A stretch of 64,000 nt of DNA from Antedon mediterranea (lineage: Eukaryota > Animalia > Echinodermata): the NCBI RefSeq assembly GCF_964355755.1, contig NC_092676.1, positions 3,387,888 to 3,451,887 on the forward strand, written 5' to 3'. The position numbers and the translations under genes are program-made. Under the pieces are notes generated by a model. That model did not search any database. It was not told where the DNA came from and saw only the letters and a list, made by a program, of their open reading frames with translations. This document shows positions 331-64,000 of the stretch, piece after piece; the first letter of the stretch is position 1; every line of letters begins with the position of its first letter.

Positions 331-703
331 AAATTAATATGACTGTGTAAAATCAGCAGACAATCAAAACGATAAAATGACTGAAACAGACAGTGAAAAT
401 GAGTATGATTATGTGGAAACATCAGGCATAGGCGTCAAAGAAGGCTCTGCAGAATACATTGAGGTTGTTGATGACACTGATGCTGATTCCATGATTGCAC
501 TACTAAAAACAGAAACTAGTAGGCCTACTGTGGCTGAGTACAATGATGCTTCAATACAACAAAACTATATTTCAATAAATATTAGAGAAAATGATAAAGA
601 GGCTGAGTTCGAAAACAGTAAATTACATCGTGTTAAAGGTATCTTCGACGTATACGAAAACGCATCTGTACGCACAAAACCACTGAAGTCTGCAAGGAAA
701 TAG
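331..703 (+). pseudogene. G0: remnant of a class-A cytoplasmic tail of the Ig receptor family
   Basis: ORF 377-703 (ETDSENEYDYVETSGIG...DVYENASVRTK) aligns to the C-termini of G2 and G9. No ectodomain or TM upstream; the upstream DNA resembles intergenic 32067-32470. Confidence 0.8.
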
Positions 704-1760
704 AAGAAGCAAAACAGAACCAAACGTAAGATCAAAAACAACGATGAAAACTTCACCAAACAATACATTACATCAAATACCTCTTTAAAAAAATAAATAT
801 CTGCCATTTCAGTTTCCCAGGTATGATCTATTAAGGCTTTTGTTAAGTGAACTTTCACTTTTTCCAAAATACTCATAATTTGACAAAATAAGCAATAATT
901 ACTAAATCATACGTTGAAATGTACAGTAATTAATTGGTTTGATGTTTAAGAAAATAAAATGAAATAAATTAGAGAGATGAATATTAACCAGAAAATAGAA
1001 GAGTAGGAAGTCCTAGAAAATAATTAGCAAGAATTGAAATCGTACAGGAAAAAAAGTCAGCAAACATAAGCATTCTAACGTGATCGTCAAAATGGTCTAT
1101 GATGGTTCTCTCTAAAACCTCGACTATACGTCATTAGATTTATATAAATATAATAATTATAACTAATAAACTTTAAGCAAGAACTAAATTGTTAAGTTAT
1201 TTACACGTTACAAGTTTCTAATTTTGTGAATATACATTTAATAAAATAATTGTACCAGGTATTACGAACGTTGGAAAGAAAGCTATCTTACACTTTAGTA
1301 ATTTTTATTAAAAGATAGAGAACAACTTTAACTTCAGCATTTATCAAGTATTCCTGTCGTGTGTGGCAGCAGACGGCAACTTACTTAAAAAGAAAAAAAG
1401 AAACAGGAATGATCCAACGTTTTAGTTTTAAGTTACTCTATAGGGGGCGGTATGCATTACTAGTTTTACCTATAGAATGGAATATGTTAAAATAACTGTA
1501 TACAGGTTACGTAGTTGATGCTAATATCACTTTAGCAGGGGTACGCTACAATACAGTTCACAGTAATCTGAGTGTTTAAACAGAGTATATTGTACCAACA
1601 ACGTGCACATGTGAGCATCTACAAAAAGTATTATAAAGGCTAATTTTAAGTCTAAGTATAATTGAATTTTGTATTATTATTTCTGGACATTTTTGATCCA
1701 TACAATCTGGAATTTGATGGGTAAGGTAATCGATATTGAAGTTTAGCAGACGTGTTTATA

Positions 1761-4040
1761 ATGGCTCATCATCAACATTGTACATTGCTGATGGTTATAT
1801 TGTATACTATGTTTTACTGCTGCTGTGCACAAACCTATACTTTTACAAAACATCCACAATCGGTTCTCGTTAAGGCTGGTTTCCTGTCGACGTAAGAACA
1901 TCACTTTTGTTGCGACTACGTCGATATGTCGTAAGAAATGCGGATTTTACAGGAAACCGATTACGATCAAAAATTTATAAAATCGACGCAACGTAAGAAA
2001 AATGGTAACGACAAACGATTTTACAGGAAACCGATGACCTAACAATTGTTGCGTTACGACGTTTTCTTCCGATTTTACAGGAAACCGGGATTTTTTATCT
2101 TACGCTTGAATGAACGCCCTTGCGTCACGTTTCTTACGTCTCTTACGAAAGTTGACTTGAAGTCAACTTTCGCAAGAGACGTAAGCGCAATCGTAACAAG
2201 TAACCAATGAACGACAAGGGTTATGACGTAATGTGTATGTCCTTATAGTGAAATAAAGCCGGACAATAACATTTGTATGTATTTACTACTATAATTTTAG
2301 TCCACTTTACGATGTTGTACATACTTTACAAATGCACAGTAGTTTCAATATAGGCCTAATAATTTTCTAATCAGGGAGTTTACAACTCATATCAAAATAT
2401 AATACTCTTATTTATGGACGTGCAATAAACAATCAGCATCGGTAGAAACGTCGCGAAAATGAACATTTGCAACAAGATAAGATATAGAAAGCCCCTTTGT
2501 AAGCAATAATATATTATTATGTAACTTTAAAAAAAAATTGTTTGCTTGATTTTGTATAATTTATATTGTTTTGTTAAATTTATTCTCATGCTCGATTAGA
2601 TATGCTTATAGGCCCATAGGCCAATGCCTAGTCTAGGGCCTAGGTCTAATAATAATAATAGGAATCTCGAAATGATTTGCCTTTTTTTAATTTTGAAAAC
2701 TATTTAAGGCTAGGCCTAGAGGGCCAGGATAATTAATTCATATGTTGATTCATACAAATAATACATAGGCCTACTAGCCTAGGCTAGGGGCCTAGGCTAG
2801 TTTGATTGTTTGGTCAAATCAATTCCTATTAGTACAGTATTAATTAAGTATTTTACTAATACTAGGGCCTAGCCTATCTACTGAAAATAACATGTTGGTG
2901 TGCTGCACTGACACTGCTGCTGAGTAGCTACAGGTACAATAACAACATTCAACATTTCGCGCGAAAAATGATAAAACCCGCTCTAAAAAGAAACACCAAT
3001 CAGAGATGTTGTTTCAAATACGTCATAAATCCGACCGACGTAAGAAAAAAATTTCAACTTTCGTAACAACACTAAAATCGACGTAAGCATACGACGTGTG
3101 TTTCACAGCCAAAATTTCAACTTTCGGGAGCAGCATAACTACAGATGTTTCTCTGCGGCCCGACACGATCTTGACTAAGGTCAACGACGTCAATTTTTTC
3201 TCAACTTTCGTAAGAGACGTAAGAAACGTATGAAACGCAAGAATCGTTGCAAAATTCGACTTCTTACGTCGACAGGAAACCAGCCTTTAAGGAAGGACAA
3301 ACAGCAACGTTGTCGTGTGAATGGACAACAGCACCAACACATGACGTTTTCTGGTCTTTTTTTCGCTCGTGTTGGTACGCCTAAATTAATTGAAAGTTTA
3401 ACATTAAAATACAATGTAACAAGTAAAGCAACATCTTCAAATCTTTCCATTTTTAATGTTGATTCTGATGACGTAGGAAGCTTAAGATACAGATGTGATA
3501 TCTTGGATAGTGATTCATACAGTCTTTCTGAACTTGCTTCTGTAGTGCTAGCAGAAATAACGTGCAATCCAGAGAATGGCAATGGTGAGATAGGAACAAC
3601 GCTGACATGTTCTTATATTTTGTCTCATCCGTTAGATAATGTTGATTTATTATGGTACAGATATGGAAGTGTAATTGAATCACATCACAAACAAATGCAT
3701 GTTTTAGAATCAAGGGTTTTGACTGCCGAAGACGATGGAGCTGTATTTACTTGTAAAGCCACAATGGGATCTCAAGTGATAGGAACTTGTGAAACTACTC
3801 CGCTAATATTGAACATAGATGCAGAGATTGAACAATAACCACCAGGTCCACTTCAGGTTGGTGATAGCTTTAATCTCACGTGCTTTGGGAAAGGTAGTCC
3901 TGATCCTGGTAATTATATTTATGAATGGATATGGAACAACATTTCTGTAGATTCTTTGAAAAGTAATTGGCGATTTGCAATAAGCAATGTATTTACTGTG
4001 AAGAGTGTGACAACCAAAGACAATGGTGAAATAGTTACTC
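1761..4040 (+). pseudogene. G1: Ig receptor pseudogene interrupted by a DNA transposon
   Basis: ATG 1761 (MAHHQHCTLL...CCCAQTYTFTKHPQSVLV), interrupted at 1873-3286, resumes KEGQTATLSCEW. Frameshift in the T-run near 3357-3363, TAA at 3836-3838 in place of TCA, and truncated in domain 3 at about 4040 where it joins intergenic-type sequence. Confidence 0.9.
1873..3286. mobile_element. Non-autonomous PIF/Harbinger-like DNA transposon (~1.4 kb)
   Basis: 26-bp perfect TIR aggctggtttcctgtcgacgtaagaa / ttcttacgtcgacaggaaaccagcct. TTA duplicated at 1870-1872 and 3287-3289. Removing the element restores the frame VLVKEGQ. Internal near-palindrome at about 2133-2185. Confidence 0.85.
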
Positions 4041-4809
4041 CATCCATTGATGTTTATTTTATCACATTCAGTATCAGTAAAACAAGTTTCTCCACGCCCA
4101 AAAAAAAAAGGGGACGAAAACCAAAATATTATGACAGAATGGAAAGCTAGTAAAAAACGGTATAAAAAACATCTTAATTTAACCGTTAACACGACATTTG
4201 CTACAACAGGAAAGATAAAGTTATGTGGAGTGTTCTAACCAGTCATAGTTAGCATTTTCAACTTAAACTCTCACTGACCACGCCTCCTCTGGAGGAAAAA
4301 TGGCAATGTATTAGGAAAGTATTTTTAAAGTATTACATCATTAATGTTAAATATTCAGTGGTGCTATTTCCCGGTATTTTATTTCTGCAGTAATCAAGTG
4401 TATCACTAGTGCTGAAGTAGATCATTCCAACTTATATAACAACAAAATAAAGACACAAGTACCAACGTTTAATGTTTGACTACGAATACAGGATCTAACC
4501 GTATACGAAGTTATTTAATATTGGAAATAATGTTGGATTAAAGTGTTTATAAACTGAGTACCATTTGTATCATACGTGTGAACAGGCAAACATTATTTAA
4601 TGTCTAAAACATTATTACTGGTGTCTTAGAATCGTCGCAATAAGGAATATAATTTATAGGAATATTTGCGTAAATCTCAATTTTATAAGGAAGTTCCAAT
4701 ATTCGGACGTCAATCGAGGCGCCTGCGTAATACCCTACTATTCCTACTATAACAACGCATGGGAACATCAATCGAACATTATGTCTGATGATATCTAATA
4801 TTGACTACA

Positions 4810-6936
4810 ATGTTTAAAATGTATCATCAACATTGTACATTGCTGTTTTACAAGTGCTTGATTATATTGTATAGTGTATTTCACTGTTGTTGTGCACAAT
4901 CCTATAATTTTACAAAACAACCAAAATCTGTTCTTGTTGGACAAGGAAGGACAGCAACGTTATCGTGTGAATGGAAACCAGCATTGTATGGAAACTATGA
5001 ATTTGCATGGTCATTTTTCCCCGATCAAAGTAGTAAAAACAATCAACGAATTGGAGTTTCAACTTCCAAGTACAATTTAACAAATATAGCAACCTCTGCA
5101 TATCTTTCCATTTTTAATGTTGGTTACAACGATGTAGGGAACTACAGGTGTGATATCTCGGAAGATGGTGGTTTATACAGTCTTTCTGAACTTGCTTCTG
5201 TAGTGCTAGCAGAAATAGTGTGCGATCCAAAAAATGGTGAGATTGGAACAACGCTGACATGTTCTTTTTATTTTTCTTATTATTATTCACGTGATATTGA
5301 TTTACTATGGTATAAAAACAGGAAACAAATTACATCAAAAGTACAAACAAATTATGTTATAAAATCAAGACCTTTGACTGTCGAAGACGATGGAGCTGTA
5401 TTCACTTGTAAAGCCATAATTAGATCTCAACATCAAATGACAGGAACTTGTGAAACTACTCCGCTAGTATTGACTATAGATGCAGAGATTGAACAATCAC
5501 CGCCAGGTACACATCAGGTTGGAGATAGCTTTAACCTTACCTGCTCAGGGAAAGGTAATCCTGATTATTATAATTATGAATGGACGTGGAATGACAAACC
5601 GGTAAGATCGTGGGCAAATGAAAGACGATTTGCAATAGATAATGTGCTTACTGTGAAGAGTGTATCAAGCAGTTACAATGACAAAATAGTTACTTGTACT
5701 ATTAGTCGCAATGGTCGTAACAGTAGTATAGCAACCTATACAGTGAACGTTATAGAGGAAATGACTACACGTTTGCTATCGACATCTGGTACGCGTACGC
5801 GAAACTCAATTACGCGTCAACTATCAACTGACGTCCCTGATGATGAGTCCCCAACCGTAATGACTACACATTTACAGTCGACACTAGGTATACATACACA
5901 CAAGTCAATTACATACATACTATCAGAAACTAATATCCAGGATAATGATTCTACAATAATATTAATTGTCATCATTGGCGTAGTTGCGATATCTCTTGTG
6001 ATTTTGATAACAGCAATTGTAAATTACATTTTACATAAAAGGCGCAAGAAACAGGATGAGAAAAAAACAAAAGCTGAAAGTGTAACATTGAAAGAACCAA
6101 TGTATGGTAACACTGATCAAGAAATTATTAAAACGCGCGTAAATGGCCGTCTGCGCGAAACGTTGATAACAGATTTTGCTGTATATGAAGAACCTGCAAT
6201 GTCAGACACACATGGAAACTTGGATATTGTTTACGAAGCCCATGACGTGCCGCCACACGACCAATTAACAGAAAAAGATAAGTATGATTATGTTACATCA
6301 GAAGAAATGACAGTTGAAATAGAAAGCAAAAACGAGTATGACTATGCAGCAATAGCAGACACCCACAGTGCCGAGATGACAACTGAACGACACAACTATG
6401 ATTATGTGGTATCAGCAGACATCCACATCACAGAAAATGAATATGACGATGTAAAATCAGCAGACGATCAAAGTGATGAAACAGACAGTGAAAATGAATA
6501 CGAGTATGTGGAAACATCAGGAATAGGCGTTACAGAAAAAGAAGGCTCTGCAGAACACATTGAGGTTGTCGATTACAGCGCTGATGACGATCCCAGTAAA
6601 GATTCACTAAAAACAGAAAATACCAGGCCTACAGCTAGCGAGTACAATGATGCTTCAATGTCACACACTTATATTTCCATCAATGATAATGATAATGAAT
6701 CTGAGTACGAAAACAGAAAATTACATCGTCTTAAAGGTATCTCGACTTCTGACAACTCAAAGACCAAATCCGAAAGTGTTAAATTATTACAGAGATCAGG
6801 AAGAGGTGGAATAACCATTTTAGATAACCGCGAGGATGACGTCAGTAAGGTGAATGCGAGTACAGTTGAAGTAAACGACGTGTACGAAAATGCATCGGTA
6901 CGCACAAAAGCAGTGAAGTGTGCTAAGAAAAAATAG
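4810..6936 (+). CDS. G2: single-exon 3-Ig-domain type I membrane receptor, class-A acidic Tyr-rich tail
   Basis: First ATG 4810 in ORF 4801-6936. Signal peptide; Ig motifs TLSC..W..DVGNYRC, TLTC..WYK..DDGAVFTC, FNLTC..WTW..VTC; Thr-rich stalk; TM IILIVIIGVVAISLVILITAIV; tail with repeated YDYV/YEYV/YEN motifs. Confidence 0.9.
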   Translation: MFKMYHQHCTLLFYKCLIILYSVFHCCCAQSYNFTKQPKSVLVGQGRTATLSCEWKPALYGNYEFAWSFFPDQSSKNNQRIGVSTSKYNLTNIATSAYLSIFNVGYNDVGNYRCDISEDGGLYSLSELASVVLAEIVCDPKNGEIGTTLTCSFYFSYYYSRDIDLLWYKNRKQITSKVQTNYVIKSRPLTVEDDGAVFTCKAIIRSQHQMTGTCETTPLVLTIDAEIEQSPPGTHQVGDSFNLTCSGKGNPDYYNYEWTWNDKPVRSWANERRFAIDNVLTVKSVSSSYNDKIVTCTISRNGRNSSIATYTVNVIEEMTTRLLSTSGTRTRNSITRQLSTDVPDDESPTVMTTHLQSTLGIHTHKSITYILSETNIQDNDSTIILIVIIGVVAISLVILITAIVNYILHKRRKKQDEKKTKAESVTLKEPMYGNTDQEIIKTRVNGRLRETLITDFAVYEEPAMSDTHGNLDIVYEAHDVPPHDQLTEKDKYDYVTSEEMTVEIESKNEYDYAAIADTHSAEMTTERHNYDYVVSADIHITENEYDDVKSADDQSDETDSENEYEYVETSGIGVTEKEGSAEHIEVVDYSADDDPSKDSLKTENTRPTASEYNDASMSHTYISINDNDNESEYENRKLHRLKGISTSDNSKTKSESVKLLQRSGRGGITILDNREDDVSKVNASTVEVNDVYENASVRTKAVKCAKKK

Positions 6937-7289: not shown

Positions 7290-8952
7290 ATGTCTCATCA
7301 TCAATATTGTACATTGCTGTTTTACAAGTGCCTGATTATATTCTATAGTGTATTTCACTGTTGTTCTGCACAATACTATACTTTTACAGAACATCCACAA
7401 TCGGTTCTCGTTACAAAAGGACAAACAGAAACATTATCGTGACAGTCATGTCATTTTCTGGTCAGCATTTCATAGAAGAACGTATACAAGAATTGATAGT
7501 TCAACTTTGAAGTGCAATGTAACAACTAAAGCAAAATCGTCATATCTTTCCATTGTTAATGTTGATTATGATGACGTAGGAAGATACAGGTGTGATATCT
7601 GGAATGGTGGTGATTCATACAATCTTTCACGAGAGGCTTCAGTAGTGTTAGGAGAAATAACGTGCAATCCAGAGAATGACAATGGTGAGATTGGAACAAC
7701 GCTGACATGTTCTTATTTTACTTCTTATTATTCACGTGATATTGATTTACTATGGTATGAAAACAGGAAACAAATTACATGAAAAGTAAAAAAAAAACAA
7801 AGTTACAAAAACAGAAGCGTTGACTGTCGAAGACGATGGAGCTGTATTTACTTGTACAGCCACACTCGCATCTCAACATCAAGTGATAGGAACTTGTGAA
7901 ACTATTCCGCTAGTATTGACTATAGATGCAGAGATTGAACAATCACCACCAGGTCCACTTCAGGTAGGTGATATCTTTAATCTTACCTGCTCAGGGAAAG
8001 GTAATCCTGATTATTATGAATATGAATGGACGTGGAATAACATACCGATACAATCGTCGCCAAGTAAAAGTCGATTTGCAATTGGCAATGTGGTTGTTGT
8101 GAATTGCGTATTAAGCAGTGACAATGGCAAAATAGTTACTTGTACTATTAGTCGTAATGGTCGCAACAGCAGTACAGCGAGCTATACAATAAACGTCTTA
8201 GAGCATGTGTTGAGTAAACCTACATCTTTACAGTCGACATCAAGTACACGTACGTACAAACCCATTACACGTCAAATATCAACAGCAAATGTTCGATATG
8301 ACGTTTCAATGATAGCAGGTTTACACACAGCATCCTTTACTATCACGCAGCATTCCATTACAGACAAAAAGTCCCAAATAGGCCTACAAACGGTTGTCAT
8401 TTGCGTATTTGCAATTTTGCTCCTCGTTTCTATAATAACAATAAGCCTATGTGTGTATTTGCAAAAAACAAAAAAGAAAAACACAATTCCTTCAGATCGA
8501 ATCTCCAATAATCGACAGTCAAATAATTTTGGATTATACGATACGATTATATTACATCATCTGGCATACACGTGACCACGACAGCCAGTGACGAAGTTCA
8601 GTATGATTATGCTATTTACACGGGCACACAAATCACCGAGGGGGTGAATAGCACGGAATACGAATACGAGGTTGGTGTATTATCTTCACGTACTGATAGT
8701 TTCAGAAAAGTCTGCACAAGTGATAAAGAGGTTGAGTACGAACATGATGACACAATAGGCCTAGGCCTACATCTCAAAGATATGACAGGCACTAACACTT
8801 CTGAAAATACATTAGATATTAGGAACAAAAGAATTAAACTATGTAAGCGCCTGAATGCAGCTGGTGGCACTGATGTAAACGTGTACGAAAATAAATCTGT
8901 ATGTACAAAAGCATTGACGTCAGCTACGACATCTTTTATACAAAAGAGATAA
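7290..8952 (+). pseudogene. G3: frameshifted Ig receptor pseudogene
   Basis: ATG 7290. Deletion and stop near 7440, TGA at 7780-7782, frameshifts near 7790-7820 and 8550-8575. Pieces 7348-7782, 7820-8575 and 8572-8952 cover D1-D3, TM and a tail ending VYENKSV. Confidence 0.85.
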
Positions 8953-13111: not shown

Positions 13112-14323
13112 ATGTTTATAATGGCTCATCATGAACATTGTACATTGCTGTTTTACAAGTGCTTGATTTTATTGTATAGTATATTTTACTGTTGTTGTGC
13201 ACAATCCTATACTTTTACAAAACAACCAAAATCTGTTCTTGTTGGACATGGAAACACAGCAACGTTATCGTGTGAATGGAGACCAGCATTGAATGAAAAC
13301 CATGTCGTTTTCTGGTCAGCATACCCTCATGTTGGTGGGTCGCATGCAATTGAAAGGTCAATTTTAAATTACAATTTAACAAATATAGCAACATCTGCAT
13401 ATCTTTCCATTTTTAATGTTGGTTACAATGATGTAGGAAGATACAGGTGTGATATCTGGAATGGTGGTGATTCATACAATCTTTCACGAGAGGCTTCAGT
13501 AGTGTTAGGAGAAATAACGTGCAATCCAGAGAATGACAATGGTGAGATTGGAACAACGCTGACATGTTCTTATTTTACTTCTTATTATTCACGTAATATT
13601 GATTTACTATGGTATAAAAACAGGAAACAAATTACATGAAAAGTATCACAAAGCAATGCTATAAAATCAAGAGCTTTGACTGTTGAAGACGATGTAGCTG
13701 TATTTACTTGTAAAGCCAGAATTAGATCTCAAAATCAAGTGATAGGAACTTGTGAAACTACTCCTATTATATTAAGTATAGATGCAGAGATTGTACAATC
13801 ACCACCAGGTACACTTCAGGTTGGAGATAGCTTCAACCTTACCTGCTTAGGGAAAGGTAATCCTGATTATTATAATTATGAATGGACGTGGAATGGCGAA
13901 CCAGTAGGATCGTCACCAAATGGAAAGCGATTTGCAATTGGCAATGTGGTTACTGCGACGAGTGTATCAATCAATGCTAATGGCAAAATAATTACTTGTA
14001 CCATTAGTCGTGATGGTCGTAATAGCAGTACAGCGAATTATACAATAAACGTTCTAGAGAACATTTCGAGTAGTCCTACAACTACACGATTGCAAACAAC
14101 ACCAACGCAACAAGTCGTTACAGACAAACTACTACCAACTACACGCTTACACACTACACGTTTGCAGTCGACACGTGCGCAACGACTCATTACAAATCCA
14201 GAAAGTACTAGCGCGGCTGAGTACGATAACGTTGCATTGCAACCAACAGATATTTGCAGCGAAGAGCCAAAGTACGAAAATAATAAACTACGTGTTAAAC
14301 GCTACAAGCATGACAACGTCTGA
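13112..14323 (+). pseudogene. G4: Ig receptor copy with an in-frame TGA (13637-13639) and deleted TM; could encode a secreted D1 product
   Basis: ORFs 13103-13639 and 13676-14323 are in the same frame. The stalk is joined directly to the late class-C tail (RLIT|NPES), so there is no TM. Confidence 0.8.
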
Positions 14324-14437
14324 CAATGTAAAAACCAAGTACGAAAATATTTACGCGCTGGCCATCAGTGAGGATAAATACAATGACGTCATATTGAGGA
14401 TCACAGAAGCGCATACTGACGACGCAAACGAGTACGA

Positions 14438-17029: not shown

Positions 17030-19036
17030 ATGTTTATAAAGACTTACCATCAACTTTGTACATTGCTGTTGTACAAGTGCCTGGTTATATTGTATGGTAT
17101 ACTTCACTGTTGTTGTGCACAATCCTATACTTTTACAAAACAACCAAAATCTGTTCTTGTTGGACAAAGAAACACAGCAATGTTGTCGTGTGAGTGGAAA
17201 CCAGCATTGAACGAAAACCATGTCGTTTACTGGTCAGCATACCCTCATGTTGGTGGGACGCAAGCAATCGATAGGTCAACTTTAAAGTACAATTTAACAA
17301 ATATAGCAACATCTGCATATCTTTCCATTTTTAATGTTGGTTACAACGATGTAGGAAGATACAGGTGTGATATCTCGGAAGGTGGTGGTTTATTCAGTCT
17401 TTCTGAACGTGCTTCTGTAGTTCTAGGAGAAATATTGTGCGATCCAAAAAATAGCAATGGTGAGATTGGAACAACGCTGACATGTTCCTATTTTACTTCT
17501 TATTATTCACGTGATATTGATTTACTATGGTATAAAAACAGGAAACAAATTACATCAAAAGTAAAACAAAACAATGCTATAAAATCAAGAGCTTTGACTG
17601 TTGAAGACGATGGAGCTGTATTTACTTGTAAAGCCAGAATTAGATCTCAAAATCAAGTGATAGGAACTTGTGAAACTACTCCTATTATATTAAGTATAGA
17701 TGCAGAGATTGTACAATCACCGCCAGGTCCACTTCAGTTTGGAGATAGCTTTAACCTTACCTGCTTAGGGAAAGGAAATCCTGATTATTATAATTATGAA
17801 TGGACGTGGAATGGCGAACCAGGAGGATCGTCACCAAATGGAAAGCGATTTGCAATTGGCAATGTGGTTACTGTGACGAGTGTATCAAGCAGATACAATG
17901 GCAAAACAGTTACCTGTACTATTAGTCGTAGTGGGCGTAACACAAGTACAGCAACATATACAGTAAACGTTATAGAACAAATGACTACACGTTTGCAGTC
18001 GACATCTGGTACGCGTACGCGCAACTCAATTACGGTCAGACTATCAGAAACTAATGTCGCGCATGACGTTTCACCAGTAATGACTAAAAGTTTACAGTCG
18101 ACACTAGGTACACGTACGTACAAGTCAATTACAGAAACTAATATCCAGGATAATGATTCTACAATAGTAATCATTGTCATCATTGGCGTAGTTGCGATAG
18201 CTCTTGTGAGTTTGATAACAGCGTTTATAATTTACGTTTTAAAGAAAAGGCACAAGACAAAACCCGAAAATGTACCATTGGAAAAACCAGTGTACGGTAA
18301 CACTGAACAAAACATTAACAGTTCTGAAATAGATAATTACCTTTGTGAAAATGTGGAGACAATATACGCAGAACCTGACCTGTCAGAAAATGGTTGCCAT
18401 GTTAAATATGACACGCCACAGAATGCATTAAATATTGATAAAACTGATGATTCTTTAGGTAAGCCAATGAAACCTAATGAAGCAAGTGATGCTAAGCCGG
18501 GAAAAATGACAAGTGCCGAAAGTACAGATGCAATACAAGTAAAACCGATCAAGGCCCGCAGTAAAGAAATTATTGAAGATCTGTATTCTAAGCCTAACAA
18601 ACGGAATGCGAAAACGCCGATCGAGGCCCAAAGCAAAGAGAATCTTGAAGATCTGTATACTAGGCCTAATAAACCGACTGCAAGCAGACCAATCAAGGCC
18701 CACAATGTTAAAGAAAGTCTTGAAGATCTGTATTCTAAGCCTAACAAACGGAATGCGAAAACGCCGATCGAGGCCCAAAGCAAAGAGAATCTTGAAAATC
18801 TGTATACTAGGCCTAATAAACCGACTGCAAGCAGACCAATCAAGGCCCACAATGTTAAAGAAAGTCTTGAAGATCTGTATTCTAAGCCTAACAAACCAAC
18901 GACAAGAACGCCAGAAATTACGCACGAAAATTCTACTAAAAAAAACGTAGAAGGCTTAACGTACGCAGAAATAGAGTTTACCCCTGAACCACAGGACTAC
19001 GGGCTTGATTACGCAACTGTACAGATTAAAAAGTAA
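17030..19036 (+). CDS. G5: 3-Ig receptor, class-B tail with five LY(S/T)(K/R)PNK repeats and paired ITIM-like motifs
   Basis: 668-aa ORF with SP, 3 Ig domains and TM IVIIVIIGVVAIALVSLITAFIIYVL; tail ends EGLTYAEI...GLDYATVQIKK. Confidence 0.9.
   Translation: MFIKTYHQLCTLLLYKCLVILYGILHCCCAQSYTFTKQPKSVLVGQRNTAMLSCEWKPALNENHVVYWSAYPHVGGTQAIDRSTLKYNLTNIATSAYLSIFNVGYNDVGRYRCDISEGGGLFSLSERASVVLGEILCDPKNSNGEIGTTLTCSYFTSYYSRDIDLLWYKNRKQITSKVKQNNAIKSRALTVEDDGAVFTCKARIRSQNQVIGTCETTPIILSIDAEIVQSPPGPLQFGDSFNLTCLGKGNPDYYNYEWTWNGEPGGSSPNGKRFAIGNVVTVTSVSSRYNGKTVTCTISRSGRNTSTATYTVNVIEQMTTRLQSTSGTRTRNSITVRLSETNVAHDVSPVMTKSLQSTLGTRTYKSITETNIQDNDSTIVIIVIIGVVAIALVSLITAFIIYVLKKRHKTKPENVPLEKPVYGNTEQNINSSEIDNYLCENVETIYAEPDLSENGCHVKYDTPQNALNIDKTDDSLGKPMKPNEASDAKPGKMTSAESTDAIQVKPIKARSKEIIEDLYSKPNKRNAKTPIEAQSKENLEDLYTRPNKPTASRPIKAHNVKESLEDLYSKPNKRNAKTPIEAQSKENLENLYTRPNKPTASRPIKAHNVKESLEDLYSKPNKPTTRTPEITHENSTKKNVEGLTYAEIEFTPEPQDYGLDYATVQIKK
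18575..18897 (+). repeat. Coding tandem repeat, 147-bp (49-aa, 24+25) dimeric unit in the G5 tail
   Basis: gaagatctgtattctaagcctaacaa at 18575, 18722 and about 18869. Confidence 0.9.
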
Positions 19037-25624: not shown

Positions 25625-25790
25625 ACAAAGATTAATAGTTCACCCTCAACATTGGACTATGTTGTTTTACAAATGCTTGATTATATTTAATTATTATACA
25701 CTTGTTAAAAACCACCGATATCGGTTATCGTTGCGAAAAGACAAACACCAACGTCATCGTGTGAATGAACACCAGAATTATATGCAAACG
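25625..25790 (+). pseudogene. Decayed 5' end (signal peptide and start of D1) of a family member
   Basis: tcaacattggactatgttgttttacaaatgcttgattata ... tcggttatcgttgcg ... tcatcgtgtgaatgaacaccagaa resembles paralog 5' ends, with stops and indels. Confidence 0.6.
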
Positions 25791-39332: not shown

Positions 39333-39847
39333 AAGAAGAATAACATAATCAACCGTACAGAATATTCATGCAAAAACAAACAATGAAAGAAACTTGTTTA
39401 TGAATGCTTAATCCCTAAATTAGAGGTTTATGGCAGGTATGATATCTTTAGTATTAAGGTTTTTATTAGTGAAATTGTTAACTTTCAACATTTGCAAACT
39501 AGTGTCCTTACGTACAGGGATGTGACTTAAAAGTATTGTAAGACTAGTATGGGCCATGGTACTTTCATGGTAAGAGAAATAGAAAAGTAGGCTAAATATA
39601 TAAGTTAATGTCTTGAATTATTATAGCATTAGTTAAAAAAGTATTGTAATTTTGTTTAAGGAAGTAAATAAAAATATTATATTAGAAATAATCAACTCTG
39701 AAATGAACATTAACCAGAAAAGGGAAGGAAGGAAGTATTAACAGATGATTAGCAAGAATTAAAACTGTACAGAAAAGAGAAAAGAAAAACAGAATAAAAT
39801 TCATCGATAAAATATCCTAATTTGGCATGAAATAAGCAACAATACTA

Positions 39848-40882
39848 ATGCTGACTATAGATGCAGAGATTGAACAGTCACCACCAGGTCCACTTCAGGC
39901 TGGGGATAGGTTTACCCTTACCTGTTCAGGGAAAGGTAATCTTGATTATTATGAATGGACGTGGAATGGCAAACCTAGGATAGGATCGTCGACAGATAAA
40001 AGTCGATTTGCAATAGATAATGTGCTTACTGCGACGAGAGTATCAATCAATGCTAATGGCAGAATAGTTACTTGTACTATTAGTCGTAGTGGTCGTAACA
40101 GCAGTACAGCGAGTTTTACAATAAATGTTCTACAGAACAATTCGAGTAGGCCTACTACTACACATTTGCAAACAACACCAACACAACAAGTCGTTACAGA
40201 CAAACTACTACCAACTACACGATTACACACTACACGTTTACATTCGACACGTACGCAACAAGTCTTTACAGACAAACAACTACCAACTACACGCTTACAC
40301 ACTACACGTTTACACACTACATGTTTGTCGACACGTACGCAACGATTCACTAAAGACCTAAAACTATCAGAAACTAATATATCGGCTGACAAGCCCCCAA
40401 CACTAATGGTTGTAATTAGTGTACTTGCAATTTTACTCGTAGTTTCTTTAATATTAATAATATACATGTATTTACAAAAAAGAAACGTATCTAGAGACAA
40501 CATAATTCCTTTAAATCGACCACCGAAAAATATTGGACACATTTACGATTATATTGTGTCTTCAGACACACAGATCAACACGAAAGGCCATGACACAAAC
40601 ACGTATGATTATGCCATATATCCGTGTACTCGCATCGCAGAGAACACAAGTGCTGAATACATTGAAGTAGAAGACAGTTTCCATGAGGGCCCACAAAAAC
40701 CAGAACAAAATATGACCGCAGTCGAGAACGATGATGTGTCCTTACAACCAACGGATATTTGCAGCAAAGAGGCCACGTACGAAAATGGTGAATTGCGTAT
40801 CAAAGGCATAGCAACTTCTGACAATATAACAACAATTAAGTACGAAAATACTAAATCATCTACGCATCTACAGGAAATATAA
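39848..40882 (+). pseudogene. G10: 5'-truncated copy (D3, stalk, TM, class-C tail only)
   Basis: The ORF begins at the D2/D3 boundary (LTIDAEIEQSPPG), fused to class-A 3'-flank sequence. No signal peptide, D1 or D2. Confidence 0.75.
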
Positions 40883-46446: not shown

Positions 46447-48003
46447 ATGGCTCAACATCAATATTGTACATTGCTGTTTTACAAGTACTTGATTATATCG
46501 TATAGTGTATTTTACTGCGGCTGTGCACAATTTTATACTTTTACACAACATCCACAATCGGTTCTCGTTGCTGAAGGACAAACAGCAACGTTATCGTGTG
46601 AATGGACACCAGCACTGATATATGTAAACCATAACTACATTGCATGGGCAGTATTTCCCAATCGTGGTAGGTCTGAGACAATTGAAAGTTCTAATTCAAA
46701 ATACAATTTAAGAAATGGAGCAACATTTTCATTTTTATCCATTCTCAATGTTGATTATAACGATGTCGGAAAATACAGGTGTGATATCTTTGATAGTGAT
46801 TCAACATACACTCTTTCTGAATCGGCTTCTGTAGTTCTAGGAGAAATAACGTGCAGTCCAGAGAATGACAATGGTGAGATTGGAACAACAATGACATGTT
46901 CTTATTTTACTTCTTATTATTCACGTGATATTGATTTACTATGGTATAAAAACAGGAAACAAATTACATCAAAAGTAAAACAAAATAATGTTATCAAATC
47001 AAATTTGACTGTCGAAGACGATGGAGCTGTATTTACGTGTAAAGCCACTGTCAGACCATCACATAGACTGATAGGAACTTGTGGAACTACTCCGCTAGTA
47101 TTGACTATAGATGCAGAGATTGAACAATCACCACCAGGTACACTTCAGGTTGGAAATAGCTTCAATCTTACCTGCTCAGCGAAAGGTAATCCTGATTATT
47201 ATAATTACGAATGGACGTGGAATAACAAACCTGTAGGATGGTCACCAAATAAAAGACTATTTGCAATAGGTAATGTGCTTACTGCGACGAGTGTATCAAT
47301 CAATGCTAATGGCAAAATGATTACTTGTACCATTAGTCGTGATGGTCGTAACAGCAGTACAGCGAATTATACAATAAACGTTATAGAGAACATTTCGAGT
47401 AGGCATACAACTAAACAACACTATACAACACCAGGTAGACGTACGCAAAAAGTCGTTACAGACAAACTACTACCAACTACACGCTTACACACTACACGTT
47501 TGCAGTCGACACGTCCGCAACCACTCATTACAGACAAACTATCAGAAAATATCTCTTCGGCTGACGAGCCCCCAACACTAATGGTTGTTATTAGTGTACT
47601 TGCAATTTCACTTGCAATTGCTTTAATATTATTAATATACATGAAAATACAAAAGAGGAACTTAGCTAGAGACAACACAATTCCTTCAAAACGACCGACG
47701 ACTAACATTGGACACAATTATGATTACATTACGTCATCAGACACACACGTGACCACGGCAGTCAATGACATAGATAATAAATACGATTATGCCGTATATC
47801 CGTGCACACGCAATGAGAAAATCGTCACTGCTGAATATATTGAGGTAGTCAACTTTTCCAAAGATGACCCAACAAATCCAGAAAGTAATAGCGCGGCTGA
47901 GTACGATAACGTTGCATTGCAACCAACAGATATTTGCAGCGAAGAGCCAAAGTACGAAAATAATAAACTACGTGTTAAACGCTACAAGCATGACAACGTC
48001 TGA
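46447..48003 (+). CDS. G12: 3-Ig receptor, class-C tail
   Basis: 518-aa ORF with SP, 3 Ig domains, stalk, TM and a tail with YDYI/YDYAVY/EYIEV/YDNV/YEN. Confidence 0.9.
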   Translation: MAQHQYCTLLFYKYLIISYSVFYCGCAQFYTFTQHPQSVLVAEGQTATLSCEWTPALIYVNHNYIAWAVFPNRGRSETIESSNSKYNLRNGATFSFLSILNVDYNDVGKYRCDIFDSDSTYTLSESASVVLGEITCSPENDNGEIGTTMTCSYFTSYYSRDIDLLWYKNRKQITSKVKQNNVIKSNLTVEDDGAVFTCKATVRPSHRLIGTCGTTPLVLTIDAEIEQSPPGTLQVGNSFNLTCSAKGNPDYYNYEWTWNNKPVGWSPNKRLFAIGNVLTATSVSINANGKMITCTISRDGRNSSTANYTINVIENISSRHTTKQHYTTPGRRTQKVVTDKLLPTTRLHTTRLQSTRPQPLITDKLSENISSADEPPTLMVVISVLAISLAIALILLIYMKIQKRNLARDNTIPSKRPTTNIGHNYDYITSSDTHVTTAVNDIDNKYDYAVYPCTRNEKIVTAEYIEVVNFSKDDPTNPESNSAAEYDNVALQPTDICSEEPKYENNKLRVKRYKHDNV

Positions 48004-49414: not shown

Positions 49415-50979
49415 ATGTTTATAAAGACTTACCATCAACTTTGTACATTGCTGTTTTACAAGTGCCTGGTTATATTGTATAGTATATTTCACTGTTGCTG
49501 TGCACAATCCTATACTTTTACAAAACAACAAAAATCTGTTTTTGTTGGACAAAGAAACACAGCAATGTTGTCGTGTGAATGGAAACCAGCATTGAATGAA
49601 AACCATGTCGTTTACTGGTCAGCATACCCTCATGTTGGTGGGTCACCAGCAATCGCAATCGATAGGTCAACTTTAAAGTACAATTTAACAAATATAGCAA
49701 CATCTGCATATCTTTCCATTTTTAATGTTGGTTACAACGATGTAGGAAGATACAGGTGTGATATCTCGGAAGATGGTGATTTATTCAGTCTTTCTGAACG
49801 TGCTTCTGTAGTTCTAGGAGAAATATTGTGCGATCCAAAAAATAGCAATGGTGAGATTGGAACAACGATGACATGTTCCTATTTTACTTCTTATTATTCA
49901 CGTGATATTGATTTACTATGGTATAAAAACAGGAAACAAATTACATCAAAAGTACCACAAAACAATGCTATAAAATCAAGAGCTTTGACTGTTGAAGACG
50001 ATGGAGCTGTATTTACTTGTAAAGCCAGAATTAGATCTCAAAATCAAGTGATAGGAACTTGTGAAACTACTCCTATTATATTAAGTATAGATGCAGAGAT
50101 TGTACAATCACCGCCAGGTCCAGGTCTCAGGTTGGAGATAGCTTCAACCTTACCTGCTTAGGGAAAGGTAATCCTGATTATTATAATTATGAATGGACGT
50201 GGAATGGCGAACCAGTAGGATCGTCACCAAATGGAAAGCGATTTGCAATTGGCAATGTGGTTCCTGCGACGAGTGTATCAATCAATGCTAATGGCAAAAT
50301 AATTACTTGTACCATTAGTCGTGATGGTCGTAATAGCAGTACAGCGAATTATACAATAAACGTTCTAGAGAACATTTCGAGTAGGCCTACAACTACACGA
50401 TTGCAAACAACACCAACGCAACAAGTCGTTACAGACAAACTACTACCAACTACACGCTTACACACTACACGTTTGCAATCGACACGTGCGCAACGACTCA
50501 TTACAGACCAACTCTCAACAACTAATATCTCATCGGCTGACGAGCCCCCAACACTAATGGTTGTTATTAGTGTACTTGCAATTTCACTTGCAATTGCTTT
50601 AATATTAATAATATACATGAAAATACAAAAGAGGAACTTAGCAAGAGACAACACAATTCCTTCAAAACGACCGACGACTAACATTGGACACAATTATGAT
50701 TACATTACGTCATCAGACACACACGTGACCACGGCAGTCAATGACATAGATAATAAATACGATTATGCCGTATATCCGTGCACACGCAATGAGAAAATCG
50801 TCACTGCTGAATATATTGAGGTAGTCAACTTTTCCAAAGATGACCCAGCAAATCCAGAAAGTAATAGCGCGGCTGAGTACGATAACGTTGCATTGCAACA
50901 AACAGATATTTGCAGCGAAGAGCCAAAGTACGAAAATAATAAACTACGTGTTAAACGCTACAAGCATGACAACGTCTGA
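49415..50979 (+). pseudogene. G13: frameshifted copy (G5-like ectodomain, class-C tail)
   Basis: ORFs 49406-50161 and 50257-50979. ccaggtccaggtctcaggtt at about 50114-50133 versus ccaggtccacttcaggtt in paralogs (net +2 nt). Confidence 0.8.
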
Positions 50980-53540: not shown

Positions 53541-55091
53541 ATGTTTAAAATGTATCATCAATATTGTACATTGCTGTTTTTCAAGTGCCTGGTTATATTG
53601 TATAGTATATTTCACTGTTGTTGTGCACAATCCTATACTTTTACAAAACAACCAAAATCTGTTCTTGTTGGACAAAGAAACACAGCATCGTTATCGTGTG
53701 AATGGAGACCAGCATTGAATGAAAACCATGTCGTTTTCTGGACAGCATACCCAGATGTTGGTGCGTGGCAAGCAATCGATAGGTCAACTTTAAAGTACAA
53801 TTTAACAACTATAGCAACATCTGCATATCTTTCCATTTTTAATGTTGATTACAAAGATGTAGGGAACTACAGGTGTGATATCTCGGAAGATGGTGGTTTA
53901 TACAGTCTTTCGGAACAGGCTTCTGTAGTGATAGGAGAAATATTGTGCGATCCAAAGAATGGTGAGATTGGAACAACGCTGACATGTTCCAATTTTACTT
54001 TTTATTATTCACGTGATATTGATTTACATTTCTATAAAGACAGGAAACAAATTAAGTCCGATGTTAAAAATTATGTTATAAAATCAGGAGCTTTGACTGC
54101 CGAAGACGATGGAGCTGTATTCACTTGTAAAGCCACCACTGGAATCCAAAATCAAGTGATAGGAACTTGTGAAATTACGCCGCTAGTATTAACCATAGAT
54201 ACAGAGATTGAACAATCACCACCAGGTCCACTTCAGGTTGGGGATAGCTTTAATCTTACCTGCTCAGGGAAAGGCAAACATGATTACTATGATTACAAAT
54301 GGACGTGGAATGACAAACCAGTAGGATCGTCGCCAAATGAAAGGCGATTTGCAATAGGTAATGTTCTTACTGTGATGAGTGTACCAAGCAGTGCTAAGGG
54401 CGAAGACGCAACTTGTACTATTAGTCGTAGTGGTCGCAACAGCAGTACAGCGAGCTATACAATAAATGTGCTAGAGAAAATTTGGAGTAGGCCTACAACT
54501 ACACATTTGCAAACAATACCAGGTAGACGTACGCAACAAGTCGTTACAGACAAACTACTACCAACTACACGCTTACACACTACACGTTTACAGTCGACAC
54601 GTGCGCAACGACTCATTACAGACCTCCTATCAGAAACTAATATATCGGGTGACGAGCCCCCAGCTCTAATGCTTGTTATTAGTGTACTTGCAATTTTACT
54701 CGTAGTTTCTGTAATATTAATAATATACATGTATTTACAAAAGAGGAACTTAGCTAGAGACAACATAATTCATTCAAGTCAACCATCGAATAATATAGGA
54801 CACAATTACGATTACATTACGTCATCAGACACACACGTGACCACGGAAGTCAATGACATAGATAATAAATACGATTATGCCGTATATCCGTGCACACGCA
54901 ATGAGAAAAACGTCACTGCTGAATATTTTGAGGTAGTCTACTTTTCCAAAGATGACCCACCAAAACCAGAAAGTAATATCGCGGCTGAGTATGCTAACGT
55001 TGCATTGCAACCAACAGATATTTGCAGCGAAGAGCCAAAGTACGAAAATAATAAACTACGTGTTAAACGCTACAAGCATGACAACGTCTGA
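53541..55091 (+). CDS. G14: 3-Ig receptor, class-C tail
   Basis: 516-aa ORF; D1 of the G4/G5 type; D2 core Trp replaced (LHFYKD); TM LMLVISVLAILLVVSVILIIYMYL. Confidence 0.9.
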   Translation: MFKMYHQYCTLLFFKCLVILYSIFHCCCAQSYTFTKQPKSVLVGQRNTASLSCEWRPALNENHVVFWTAYPDVGAWQAIDRSTLKYNLTTIATSAYLSIFNVDYKDVGNYRCDISEDGGLYSLSEQASVVIGEILCDPKNGEIGTTLTCSNFTFYYSRDIDLHFYKDRKQIKSDVKNYVIKSGALTAEDDGAVFTCKATTGIQNQVIGTCEITPLVLTIDTEIEQSPPGPLQVGDSFNLTCSGKGKHDYYDYKWTWNDKPVGSSPNERRFAIGNVLTVMSVPSSAKGEDATCTISRSGRNSSTASYTINVLEKIWSRPTTTHLQTIPGRRTQQVVTDKLLPTTRLHTTRLQSTRAQRLITDLLSETNISGDEPPALMLVISVLAILLVVSVILIIYMYLQKRNLARDNIIHSSQPSNNIGHNYDYITSSDTHVTTEVNDIDNKYDYAVYPCTRNEKNVTAEYFEVVYFSKDDPPKPESNIAAEYANVALQPTDICSEEPKYENNKLRVKRYKHDNV

Positions 55092-58924: not shown

Positions 58925-58960
<36 letters not shown>

Positions 58961-61125: not shown

Positions 61126-62884
61126 TAAACAAGAACACTTGGAACACTAAGATATAAAAACACACTGAATGTTTATATAAAAAGGAAATTGTATGGTTTT
61201 CTATAATCATTTAATAATGAATGTATAATAATAAGTAACATTTGCTGTTGTTCTGTCACATTTTTATTTTGAAATAATAATATTTGCTGCGCCATGGGGT
61301 CTGGTTTATATTAACAGTATTCACGTTAGAAGAATAAATCTTTATTATATTAATATTATTATTATTATATAATTATCTAATCTAAAAATCAAATCATTTT
61401 TCAAAACTAGAGAGGAAGGCTTCTTTTAATATTTGTCTCTAAACAACGTTCCGCAGATATACTATAGTATATAGTTTACAGGAAGCAATCAATTGTGAAT
61501 CTAAATGAGGGAAAAGTGAGATTTCTCCAGAATCTAAATTTAATTTGAGCAACACAAAAACAATAAGGAAAAAGAAAGAAGTGTTACGAAATGATTAGCC
61601 CAAGACTTGAAAACAGAGCCTATGATTGATTTATGATTAAGTACCGGTCCAGTCACGTGTTCAGTTTTATACAATCCGGGTTCCAACGAGCACTCCCTAA
61701 ACTTGAGCGAGTTCAATGAGTCAATAGAAATGCTACTGCTTTACTGAATTTTGTATTATTTTCGACGATGATTATTGTTATAGGTATTTTGAAGGTGTTA
61801 CGTTATCTTAAACATGTGCGCATGCGCTATGACATTTATAATGTTTCATCAAGTTAACCATAATTTTAATAATTCCAATATCACAGTGAAGGCATGTCAT
61901 GAGAAATAGTCTTATCGATTTAACTTGAAAAAACCCGACAAAAACCAATTTAGAATTTCAGTATAATAATCCGAAAAATGGATAAAAAGCTAAATAAAAG
62001 AAAACAAATAATAATTGTTGAATATTTATCCACACAAAGTGTGAAGTTGAGTACGAGAAGAATACAATAGATATACTGTTAATACAGTATAGTGAACATA
62101 TCCATTGATGTCTATTTTATCACATTCAATATCAGTAAAACAAGTTTCTCCACGCCCAACAAAAAAGGGGACGAAAACAAAAATATTATGACAGAATGGA
62201 AAACTAGTAAAAACGGTATAAAAAACATCTTAATTTAACCGTTAACACGACAATTGCTACGACAGGAAAGATAAAGTTATGTGGAGTGTTTTAACCAATC
62301 ACAGTCACGAACTACTCAGCATTTACAACTTAAACTCTCACTCACCATACGCCTCCGACTGATAGACGTATATCACGCCCTCTGGAGGAAAAATGACAAT
62401 GTATCAGGAAAGTATTTTTAAAGTATTACATCATTAATGTTGAATATTCAGTGGCGCTATTTCCTGATATTTTATTTCTGCAGTAATCAAGTTTATCACT
62501 GGTGCTGAAGTAGATCATTCCAACTTATATAAAGACAAAATAAAGACACAAGTGCCAACGTTTAATGTTTGACTACGAATACAGGATCTAACCGTATACG
62601 AAGTTATTTAGTATTGGATATAATGTTGGATTGAAGTGTTTATCAATTGAGCAGCATACGTGTGAACAAGCAAACATTATTTAATGTCTAAACATTATTA
62701 CTGGTGTCTTTGAATCGTCGGAATAAGGAATATCATGTATAGGAATATTTGCGTAAATCTCAATTTGATAAGGAAGTTCCAATATTCGGACGTCAGTCGA
62801 GGTGCCTTAGTCAGTATTGTACCATTCCTATTATAACAACGCGTGGGAACATCGACCGTCTTATGATATCTAATATTTACTACA

Positions 62885-64000
62885 ATGTTTATAAAGACTT
62901 ACCATCAACATTGTACATTGCTGTTGTACAAGTGCCTGGTTATATTGTATGGTATACTTCACTGTTGTTGTGCACAATCCTATACTTTTACAAAACAACC
63001 AAAATCTGTTCTTGTTGGACAAGGAAACACAGCATCGTTATCGTGTGAATGGAAACCAGCATTGAATGAAAACCATGTCGTTTACTGGTCAGCATACCCT
63101 CATGTTGATGGGTCGCAAGCAATCGATAGGTCAACTTTAAAGTACAATTTAACAACTATAGCAACATCTGCATATCTTTCCATTTTTAATGTTGATTACA
63201 ACGATGTAGGAAGATACAGGTGTGATATCTCGGAAGGTGGTGATTTATTCAGTCTTTCTGAAGAGGCTTCTGTAGTTCTAGGAGAAATAACGTGCAATCC
63301 AGAGAATGACAATGGTGAGATTGGAACAACGCTGACATGTTCTTATTTTACTTCTTATTATTCACGTGATATTGATTTACTATGGTATGAACACAGGAAA
63401 CAAATTACATCAGAAATGCAACAAAATAAGGCTATAAAATCAAGAGCTTTGACTGTTGAAGACGATGGAGCTGTATTTACTTGTACAGCCACAATTAGAT
63501 CTCAAAATCAAGTGATAGGAACTTGTAAAACTACTCCTCTAATATTGACTATAGCTGCCAAGATTGAACAATCACCGCCAGGTACACTTCAGGTTGGAGA
63601 TAGCTTTAACCTTACCTGCTCAGGGAAAGGTAATCCTGATTATTATAATTATACATGGACGTGGAATAACAAACCGGTAGGATCGTCACCAAATGAAAGA
63701 CGATTTTCAAAAGATAATGTGCTTACTGTGAATAGTGTTTCAAGCGGTGCAAATGGCAAAAAAGTTACTTGTACTATTAGTCGCAGTGGTCGTAACAGCA
63801 GCATAGCAACCTATACAGTGAACGTTACAGAGCAAATGACTACACGTTTGCAGTCGACATCTGGTACACCTACCCGCAACTCAATTACACGTCATCTAAC
63901 AACCAAAGTCCCTGATGACGTGTCCCCAACAGTAATGACAACACGTTTACAGTCGACACCAGGTACACATGCACACAAGCCAATTACGGTCGGACTATCA
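62885..64000 (+). CDS. G15: 3-Ig receptor, partial (runs off the window; absent from the ORF track)
   Basis: Manual translation from ATG 62885 is open for 372 codons: MFIKTYHQHCTLL…SLSCEWKP…DVGRYRCDISEGGDLF…DDGAVFTC…FNLTC…VTCTI…Thr-rich stalk. Confidence 0.88.
   Translation, partial: MFIKTYHQHCTLLLYKCLVILYGILHCCCAQSYTFTKQPKSVLVGQGNTASLSCEWKPALNENHVVYWSAYPHVDGSQAIDRSTLKYNLTTIATSAYLSIFNVDYNDVGRYRCDISEGGDLFSLSEEASVVLGEITCNPENDNGEIGTTLTCSYFTSYYSRDIDLLWYEHRKQITSEMQQNKAIKSRALTVEDDGAVFTCTATIRSQNQVIGTCKTTPLILTIAAKIEQSPPGTLQVGDSFNLTCSGKGNPDYYNYTWTWNNKPVGSSPNERRFSKDNVLTVNSVSSGANGKKVTCTISRSGRNSSIATYTVNVTEQMTTRLQSTSGTPTRNSITRHLTTKVPDDVSPTVMTTRLQSTPGTHAHKPITVGLS

Follow-up and report, generated by a model that had tools for sequence, protein, structure and literature searches.

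The 64,000-nt stretch of Antedon mediterranea DNA considered here (the window, whose coordinates are used throughout) carries a tandem array of genes for receptors with three immunoglobulin (Ig) domains. In this DNA of 33% GC, 15 receptor units retaining at least part of the ectodomain lie head-to-tail on the + strand, as do two remnants. Eight of the 15 are complete single open reading frames (ORFs) running from ATG to stop, at 4810, 17030, 22805, 26645, 37431, 43439, 46447, and 53541, and they encode proteins of 493–708 residues. The layout of a complete ORF is as follows: signal peptide, three Ig domains (D1, D2, and D3), a serine/threonine-rich stalk, one transmembrane (TM) segment, and a tail. 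Six units (40%) are broken, namely those at 1755–4048, 7290, 13112, 29345, 39839, and 49415, and their lesions comprise frameshifts, stops, a deletion, a 5′ truncation, and a transposon. The last unit, at 62885..64000, has a type a D1, 95% identical to that of the copy at 17030 (g17030), and its tail lies beyond the window.

A first-pass annotation of the window, made from its letters alone, had counted about 15 head-to-tail copies plus remnants, given each a signal peptide, three Ig domains, a stalk, a TM segment, and a Tyr-rich tail, judged about 40% of them disrupted or truncated, and expected the cluster to run past the right edge. The counts above agree with this description, the copy at 62885 is open at position 64000, and the layout is found in the eight complete ORFs, in Pfam Ig matches, and in an AlphaFold model. 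The genes had also been called intronless. That holds for the coding sequence, given eight single ORFs; a 5′ untranslated intron could still exist. A retrocopy is a plausible, if putative, founder of the single-exon family. Three points are new beyond that annotation: three tail classes with swaps between D1 types and tails, selection on one face of D1 within a constrained ectodomain, and relatives in hemichordates and a crinoid.

Pfam Ig families scored above cut-off in all ten receptor ORFs scanned (the eleventh scanned protein belongs to a long interspersed nuclear element, LINE), and no Fn3 domain was found in these ORFs by Pfam. Structure prediction of D1–D3, which had been proposed as a check, gave three Ig β-sandwiches with a predicted local distance difference test (pLDDT) score of 75. 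The V-frame core of D1 (Trp, Lys, Leu, Asp, Tyr) is present in 10 of 10 copies and both Cys residues in 8 of 10, while four Cys in D2 and two in D3 are invariant. Ectodomains are 57–96% identical to that of g17030, and nowhere is the gene more conserved than at the beginning of D3 (0.90–0.91). The stalk contains 28–42% Ser/Thr and is only ~20 residues long in g26645. No charged residue (D/E/K/R) occurs in any of 11 TM segments.

The tails, 117–305 residues long, contain 6% Tyr (91/1520 residues; Phe 12, Trp 0), and 73 of the 91 Tyr have an acidic residue at most four positions upstream. Three classes, I, L, and S, are distinguished. I tails are found in two of the eight intact copies: g17030 (17030..19036, 668 residues, D1 type a), with D1 at 17120–17422, D2 at 17423–17695, D3 at 17696–17974, and TM at 18170–18232, and g26645 (26645..28306, 553 residues, D1 type d with the first Cys replaced by Trp). 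They hold five to seven YxxP motifs (seven in g17030) and a C-terminal pair of motifs like an ITIM (immunoreceptor tyrosine-based inhibitory motif), LTYA[ED]I and LDYATV. Both motifs are retained between the two copies, at 18956–18973 and 19004–19021 in g17030 and at 28208–28225 and 28274–28291 in g26645. The I-tail end matches these two copies only, and no separate downstream ITIM exon was found in the window.

L tails are long and acidic, with YDYV, YDDV, YEYV, and YEN motifs. They are carried by g4810 (4810..6936, 708 residues, D1 type a; YDYV twice, YDDV, YEYV, and YEN twice), by g37431 (37431..39332, 633 residues, D1 type b), by broken copy 29345 (29329..31330, D1 type b, frameshifts in the signal peptide and near 31044), and by a remnant at 332..703, the distal half of an L tail with 49% identity to that of g4810. 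The membrane-proximal part is common to L and I tails (49–53% identity for g26645). S tails occur in eight units and share homology with the distal L tail. The intact S copies are g22805 (22805..24520, 571 residues, D1 type e, the most divergent copy), g43439 (43439..44920, 493 residues, D1 type b with the second Cys replaced by Phe), g46447 (46447..48003, 518 residues, D1 type c), and g53541 (53541..55091, 516 residues, D1 type a). The broken ones lie at 7290..8900 (frameshifts near 7447 and 7788), at 13112..14330 (D1 type a; stop at 13637–13639; a 342-bp deletion near 14193 that takes out the TM segment but leaves an S-type tail end), at 39839..40882 (beginning at the D2/D3 junction, with D3, stalk, TM, and tail), and at 49415..50979 (frameshift near 50123).

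Motifs of the form Y[DE]x[VP] are enriched in g4810, g22805, and 29345 (0/500 shuffles each). Tyr is retained over other two-codon residues, clearly in 10 of 14 tail pairs and nominally in nearly all; overall, the tails are near neutral, with Tyr preferentially kept. No canonical immunoreceptor tyrosine-based activation motif (ITAM) was seen in the 12 tails scanned.

Several local features of the tails deserve mention. An in-frame 72/147-bp repeat at 18544–18897 multiplies a DLY[ST][KR]PNK motif in g17030. Five S copies have one frameshift in common and end in HDNV (44900–44920, 47983–48003, 50959–50979, 55071–55091, and 14303–14323), presumably a possible class III PDZ-binding end; in most of them, an older frame with four further Tyr is still open downstream. 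At the 31044 frameshift of copy 29345, seven bases are missing in contigs of short-read runs X2, X5, and X6. Either this break is polymorphic or the shorter contigs may derive from a paralogue.

D1 types and tails are not inherited as fixed pairs. D1 type a is found with an I tail (17030), an L tail (4810), and S tails (53541, 49415, and 13112), and type b with L tails (37431 and 29345) and an S tail (43439). At the DNA level, the D1 of I-tailed g17030 is 92% identical to that of S-tailed g53541, 97% to that of broken, S-tailed 49415, and 85% to that of L-tailed g4810. A shared tree for D1, D2, and D3 was rejected in six of six cross-comparisons (approximately unbiased tests, p ≤ 0.012). In seven triplets picked after inspection of identity profiles, the breakpoint lay beyond all 2000 permutations in every case. 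In the recombinant g53541, informative sites match g17030 at 129/152 before about codon 204 and at 28/306 after it. Copy 49415 is g17030-like from promoter to D3 (93–99%) and g46447-like in its tail (98–99%), with the switch near codon 282. The recombinant g43439 resembles g37431 at first and an S-type parent later, with a changeover placed between codons 193 and 263 according to which parent is used, and the switch point of g4810 lies inside the tail. Late D2 or D3 contains five of the six S-type or D3 breakpoints. The copies have evidently been duplicated, lost, and reassorted, and exchange between them, mostly within late D2 and D3, has shuffled D1 types, stalks, and tails.

Selection was analyzed with in-house codon-model code on ten ectodomains. 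A fully neutral model was rejected in each domain (twice the log-likelihood difference, 2dL, 47–84), and about 50% of ectodomain codons have omega (dN/dS) of 0.16–0.20. In D1, a positively selected class was detected (M1a versus M2a, 2dL 15.5, P 4e-4; M8, P 2e-5). The signal persists without loops and gap columns (P 0.002), in the seven copies with both Cys (P 1.5e-5), and without the broken copy. Null simulations with a mid-domain switch of trees reached the observed value in 0 of 137 cases (maximum 7.1). With strands assigned from the AlphaFold model, mean site omega in D1 is 1.34 on the C–C′D plus F–G segments versus 0.74 elsewhere (P 2e-4). The high-posterior sites are outward, alternating strand C positions (65 and 67), the CC′ loop, C′, the FG loop, and strand G (127). 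The C/C′/FG/G face of an Ig V-type domain is its ligand-binding face and is also used in Ig–Ig contacts. Under these models, D1 has evidently changed adaptively on its C/CC′/C′/FG/G face while the Ig core was conserved.

These results bear on whether the array is mostly a decaying tandem amplification, in which one or two genes are of use, the others drift, and unequal crossing-over is a by-product. Six of 15 units are broken, mean pairwise dN/dS is 0.86–0.90 for signal peptide, D1, and D2, the tails are near neutral, D1 cysteines have been lost, and an orthologue test of copy 22805 (below) is non-significant. Nevertheless, each domain has half of its codons under constraint, and the signal of positive selection holds up in the controls. 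Eight long ORFs have been kept at 5–35% divergence in such AT-rich DNA, and neither stop nor indel occurs among 30 orthologous variants of copy 22805. We regard decay as decidedly unlikely.

The first-pass annotation had named assembly artefact as a possible undoing of the array. Paralogous DNA is 65–95% identical in D1, 71–93% in D2, and 76–93% in D3, that is, 5–35% divergent. Nine short-read runs, from two coded organisms and three studies, contain part of copy 17030, and four of the nine were examined by contigs. In all four, the D1–D2 region of copy 22805 is covered by a single ungapped contig of 503–592 bases, differing from the window at 4/558 (0.7%) and 11/503 (2.2%) positions in organism A and at 17–18/592 in organism B. 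The best-matching run may be the source sample, so independent support comes from the other three. An artefact is not borne out. False duplication in the assembly might be read from two pairs of near-identical non-coding blocks (14519–16161 with 60925–62565 and 14193–14939 with 50849–51590; 98.5–98.9%), but the coding copies stand 5–35% apart, each with distinct lesions, and individual copies are matched by independent contigs of two organisms. We take false duplication to be barely credible; the block pairs point instead to very recent duplication or conversion.

Copy 22805 yielded 34 variant rows, of which four were removed as paralogue-derived. The 30 classed variants comprise 19 replacement and 11 silent changes, with no stops and no indels. 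Contig depths added up where D3 begins come to 17–34 times that of the 22805-specific contig. As depth is not copy number, this is at most a hint of tens, and not hundreds, of copies. Run X8 was considered as an RNA sample and rejected: it is DNA-like, with intergenic repeats far deeper than genes and intergenic contigs present.

Relatives were sought with a full HMMER scan of 1.84 billion representative sequences. It gave 1894 matches, the best 150 of which were considered; most are giant multi-Ig proteins, and closer short relatives may lie outside this set. No near-identical protein on record was found among the best 150 of 1894. Ranking by single-stretch ectodomain score placed five proteins at the top of 158, with 73–52 bits, ahead of a tick protein at 47 bits. 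These nearest relatives among the matches listed are XP_077864653.1 and XP_077865053.1 of Saccoglossus, XP_078001388.1 of Glandiceps, XP_070550306.1 of Ptychodera, and XP_033121820.1 of the crinoid Anneissia. They bear automatic names only and were compared here at protein level. Identity to the window receptors is 23–26%, in line with the first-pass annotation, which had not recognised a named family. Taken on their own, these matches would point to an echinoderm or hemichordate as the probable source of the DNA. The relatives are transmembrane proteins of the form (V)-V-C2-I and share with the window receptors the patterns L-x-x-x-D-[DN]-G-x3-C...C-x3-P in D2 and NP-x3-Y-x-W in D3; the four hemichordate proteins differ by one extra N-terminal Ig domain. 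In the reciprocal direction, a profile of the relatives' modules ranked the ten window proteins among the top 12 of 163 pre-selected, hence not blind, matches, alongside one more protein of Saccoglossus and a nephrin-like one of a whitefly.

Saccoglossus XP_077864653.1 has an ITIM-like tail in common with the window I tails. The tail of Saccoglossus protein P0219 (EPMY, YAQVNK, NVEGLMYAEL) aligns to the I tail, and NVEGLxYA[DE] recurs; motifs this short could be convergent. The Anneissia protein (P0173) contains two complete V-C2-I-TM-tail modules in a row within one gene model. It is likely two adjacent genes fused by annotation, a hint of tandem copies in Anneissia too.

Other searches were less informative. 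Word-index protein searches confirmed 0 of 2587 candidates with a single ectodomain and 0 of 7992 with alignment A1, and 0 of 135 pattern matches in metagenome contigs were confirmed; these blanks are weak, as HMMER did find distant relatives. Atlas, PDB-sequence, and fold searches returned generic Ig matches only, with no discrimination of families. In the fold search, Kirrel2, Neph1, Rst, and SYG-1 were level with titin and antibody domains (Z 12.7–13.3). We infer from the protein comparisons that the window family is a branch of an unnamed hemichordate/crinoid group of V-C2-I receptors, with a nephrin/KIRREL-like module by descent. The first-pass annotation had proposed an independently expanded recognition-receptor system. 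Birth-and-death, D1 selection, and the split between ITIM-like and non-ITIM tails uphold the expansion, but the ancestry is not wholly new.

This ancestry raises the possibility that a nephrin/KIRREL-like gene gave rise to a code for adhesion or cell identity, serving neuronal wiring, gamete contact, cell fusion, or filtration junctions, with tails coupled to actin via Nck/Grb2-type adaptors. The V/I-C2-I module has some resemblance to that of the nephrin/KIRREL (IRM) proteins, relative P0233 is named 'kin of IRRE-like', and nephrin-like proteins of Bemisia and Centruroides rank directly below the ambulacrarian and window proteins. YDxV and YxN are tail motifs of nephrin/Neph1 type, and positive selection is known in gamete-recognition proteins too. 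On the other hand, KIRREL has five Ig domains and nephrin eight to nine plus Fn3, each in few stable copies, and molecules for wiring or filtration tend to be kept as stable orthologues. The window genes have three Ig domains only and no Fn3, form a 15-copy, high-turnover array under positive selection with 40% of copies broken and D1–tail pairs reshuffled, and include a distinct ITIM-like tail class. An adhesion code is unlikely, though worth keeping in view.

Vertebrate paired receptors, LILR, KIR, and NITR among them, offer a precedent. Their activating members have a short tail and a charged TM residue for DAP12 or FcR-gamma, whereas the window TM segments are uncharged, the tails long, and the coding sequence without introns. 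Siglecs are defined by an essential Arg on the D1 F strand and a non-canonical D1 disulphide; in the window, nine of ten copies have D/E next after the F-strand Cys (R only in g26645), and the canonical Cys pair is present in eight of ten. The likeness lies in near-identical ectodomains on inhibitory-type and other tails, as in g17030 versus g53541, 49415, and g4810. In the available text on Siglec-11/16 (PMC5701461), like ectodomains stand on opposing tails, are kept alike by sequence exchange, and have frequent null copies.

Two invertebrate systems are also comparable. As far as the available text describes them (10.1101/2022.03.04.482883), the Hydractinia Alr genes are, like the window genes, clustered Ig receptors with pseudogenes (12 of 41 models), domain shuffling, and tyrosine-motif tails. 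In Alr, each Ig domain, the Fn3-like spacer, and the TM segment have their own exon, ITAMs are many, and mean identity among members is 24% (same source). The window genes differ in having one coding exon, a Ser/Thr stalk without Fn3, no canonical ITAM, and far closer ectodomains. In the available account of Botryllus (PMC12582321), FF/FcoR resemble the array in the three Ig domains of FcoR, in ITIM-type tails, and in intergenic recombination mixing ectodomains and tails; FcoR has an Ig-Sushi-Ig-Ig arrangement, is divided into many exons and alternatively spliced, and is paired with FF partners. The three Ig domains of the window receptors are contiguous, with nothing between D1 and D2, and many exons, splicing, and FF partners were not seen in the window array. 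Crossover or conversion within a one-exon gene gives the same outcome as exon shuffling in Alr and intergenic recombination in FF/FcoR. To summarize, the window family appears functionally akin to clustered paired receptors but belongs to none of Alr, FcoR, Siglec, and IRM.

The resemblance to Alr and FF/FcoR might extend to allorecognition, in which D1 variants would bind self in trans, allele- or copy-specifically, and ITIM-like versus non-ITIM tails would set tolerance or rejection. The selected D1 face is one used for Ig–Ig contacts. The genomic logic of shuffling, pseudogenes, and ITAM/ITIM tails is that described, in the available texts, for Alr (10.1101/2022.03.04.482883) and FF/FcoR (PMC12582321), and graft rejection is reported in echinoderms (PMC2248247). 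Nonetheless, the divergence at copy 22805 (4/558 and 11/503 in organism A, 17–18/592 in B) is modest for a self marker, one copy and few haplotypes being covered, where Alr1/2 have tens to hundreds of alleles in the text available (10.1101/2022.03.04.482883). Allorecognition is, in our judgment, quite unlikely. Of the earlier proposal of an immune or allorecognition family, the innate-immune half is the more probable, and the allorecognition half is less supported.

We suggest that the array is probably an undescribed, germline-encoded innate-immune family of inhibitory plus activating three-Ig receptors, a reading to which we give a probability of about 0.6. The C/CC′/C′/FG/G face of D1 would bind a changing ligand, such as a microbial adhesin, a glycan, or a self marker mimicked by microbes. 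Src-family phosphorylation of the I tails would let the ITIM-like pair recruit SHP-type phosphatases and damp the response. The L and S tails (YDYV, YDDV, YEN) may recruit Src/Nck/Grb2-type SH2 proteins directly, leading to actin remodelling, engulfment, or activation; these motif-to-partner assignments follow p130Cas, nephrin, and Neph1. A microbe engaging an inhibitory copy could meet a response from a non-inhibitory one that bears the same tip domain, as described in the available text for Siglec-11/16 (PMC5701461). A wider scheme is tentative, and on balance doubtful: an ancient echinoderm-hemichordate family, its ITIM tail predating the phylum split, in which crossover in the conserved D2/D3 region of a single-exon array would replace exon shuffling and go on producing fresh pairings of ligand face and signalling tail. 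Such a family would serve paired reception or graft recognition, and its activating members would need no ITAM adaptor.

A number of points weigh against the innate-immune reading. The immune role, the cell type, the ligand, and the phosphorylation are all predictions from gene sequences, and the ectodomain is nephrin/KIRREL-like, that is, of an adhesion-protein lineage. Without loops, about 1% of sites carry the D1 signal; D2 and D3 give weaker positive-selection signals too (P 0.006–0.09); and the selection code, applied to at most ten sequences, keeps branch lengths fixed up to a scale. The orthologous omega of copy 22805 is ~0.6, indistinguishable from neutral (P 0.2; 19 versus 11). One D1 Cys is lost in two intact copies (26645 and 43439), and the TM segment of copy 37431 is weak (mean hydropathy 1.9). 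As to the tails, ITIM counts exceed shuffles modestly (P 0.07 and 0.03), whole-tail dN/dS is 0.50–1.21, and frameshifts shorten most S tails, the earlier frame being still open past the stop in several copies. With neither a canonical ITAM nor a charged TM residue, the 'activating' role of the non-ITIM tails is putative.

The remaining features of the window are fragments, mobile elements, and repeats. The broken copy at 1755..4048 spans signal peptide to D3 and contains a terminal-inverted-repeat element at 1873–3286 (TTA duplication), a frameshift near 3367, and a stop at 3836–3838; the pieces at 1755 and 3292 are a single gene interrupted by this 1.4-kb element. The second remnant, at 25647..25790, is a decayed signal peptide plus the start of D1. 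Another inverted-repeat element, at 20688–21872 with TTA/TAA flanks, is of very high copy by contig depth. A larger one at 55328–60922 (TAA duplication), which we take to be PIF/Harbinger-like, is inserted in a 40-bp minisatellite behind g53541 and holds a nested, 5′-shortened LINE ORF at 55603–58842 with RVT_1 and zf-RVT domains (best relatives 49%, uninformative as to clade). The minisatellite, of 3–18 copies, occurs at 14438–14723, 48118–48856, 51094–51373, 55206–55328, and 60923–61129. It starts where the former S-tail frame ends, marks one S-gene subgroup, and may promote unequal crossing-over. No Rfam match was found in the window, and none of 67 intergenic frames matched Pfam. Upstream of the genes, a conserved GGGCGG box lies 310–374 bases before 1755, 26636, 37431, and 43430 and is missing from the other 10 of 14 upstream regions; it marks one upstream type, and promoter types may also have been reassorted. 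No shared NF-kB site was found, such a site occurring in only 2 of the 14 upstream regions.

The literature searched, which misses most subscription papers, yielded no account of such a family for either echinoderms or hemichordates; one may nevertheless have been published. How new the family is may depend on the 2006 sea urchin immune-repertoire papers, in which a small number of V-C-TM genes are reportedly mentioned. The available text of a 2026 review of sea cucumber immunity (PMC13673367) has no occurrence of ITIM or of IgSF, the Ig superfamily, and in that of a 2025 review of invertebrate IgSF (PMC11999971) ITIM comes up for LILRB only. Ig receptors that are clustered, recombine, and have opposing tyrosine motifs are already described for vertebrates, Hydractinia, and Botryllus (PMC5701461; 10.1101/2022.03.04.482883; PMC12582321). 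If the Antedon genes work in immune cells, they would fill a gap between cnidarians and chordates and provide a short, concrete list of candidates for inhibitory and activating recognition. Their one-exon layout makes the copies easy to type and express, and the array is a case of tail swapping without exons or splicing.

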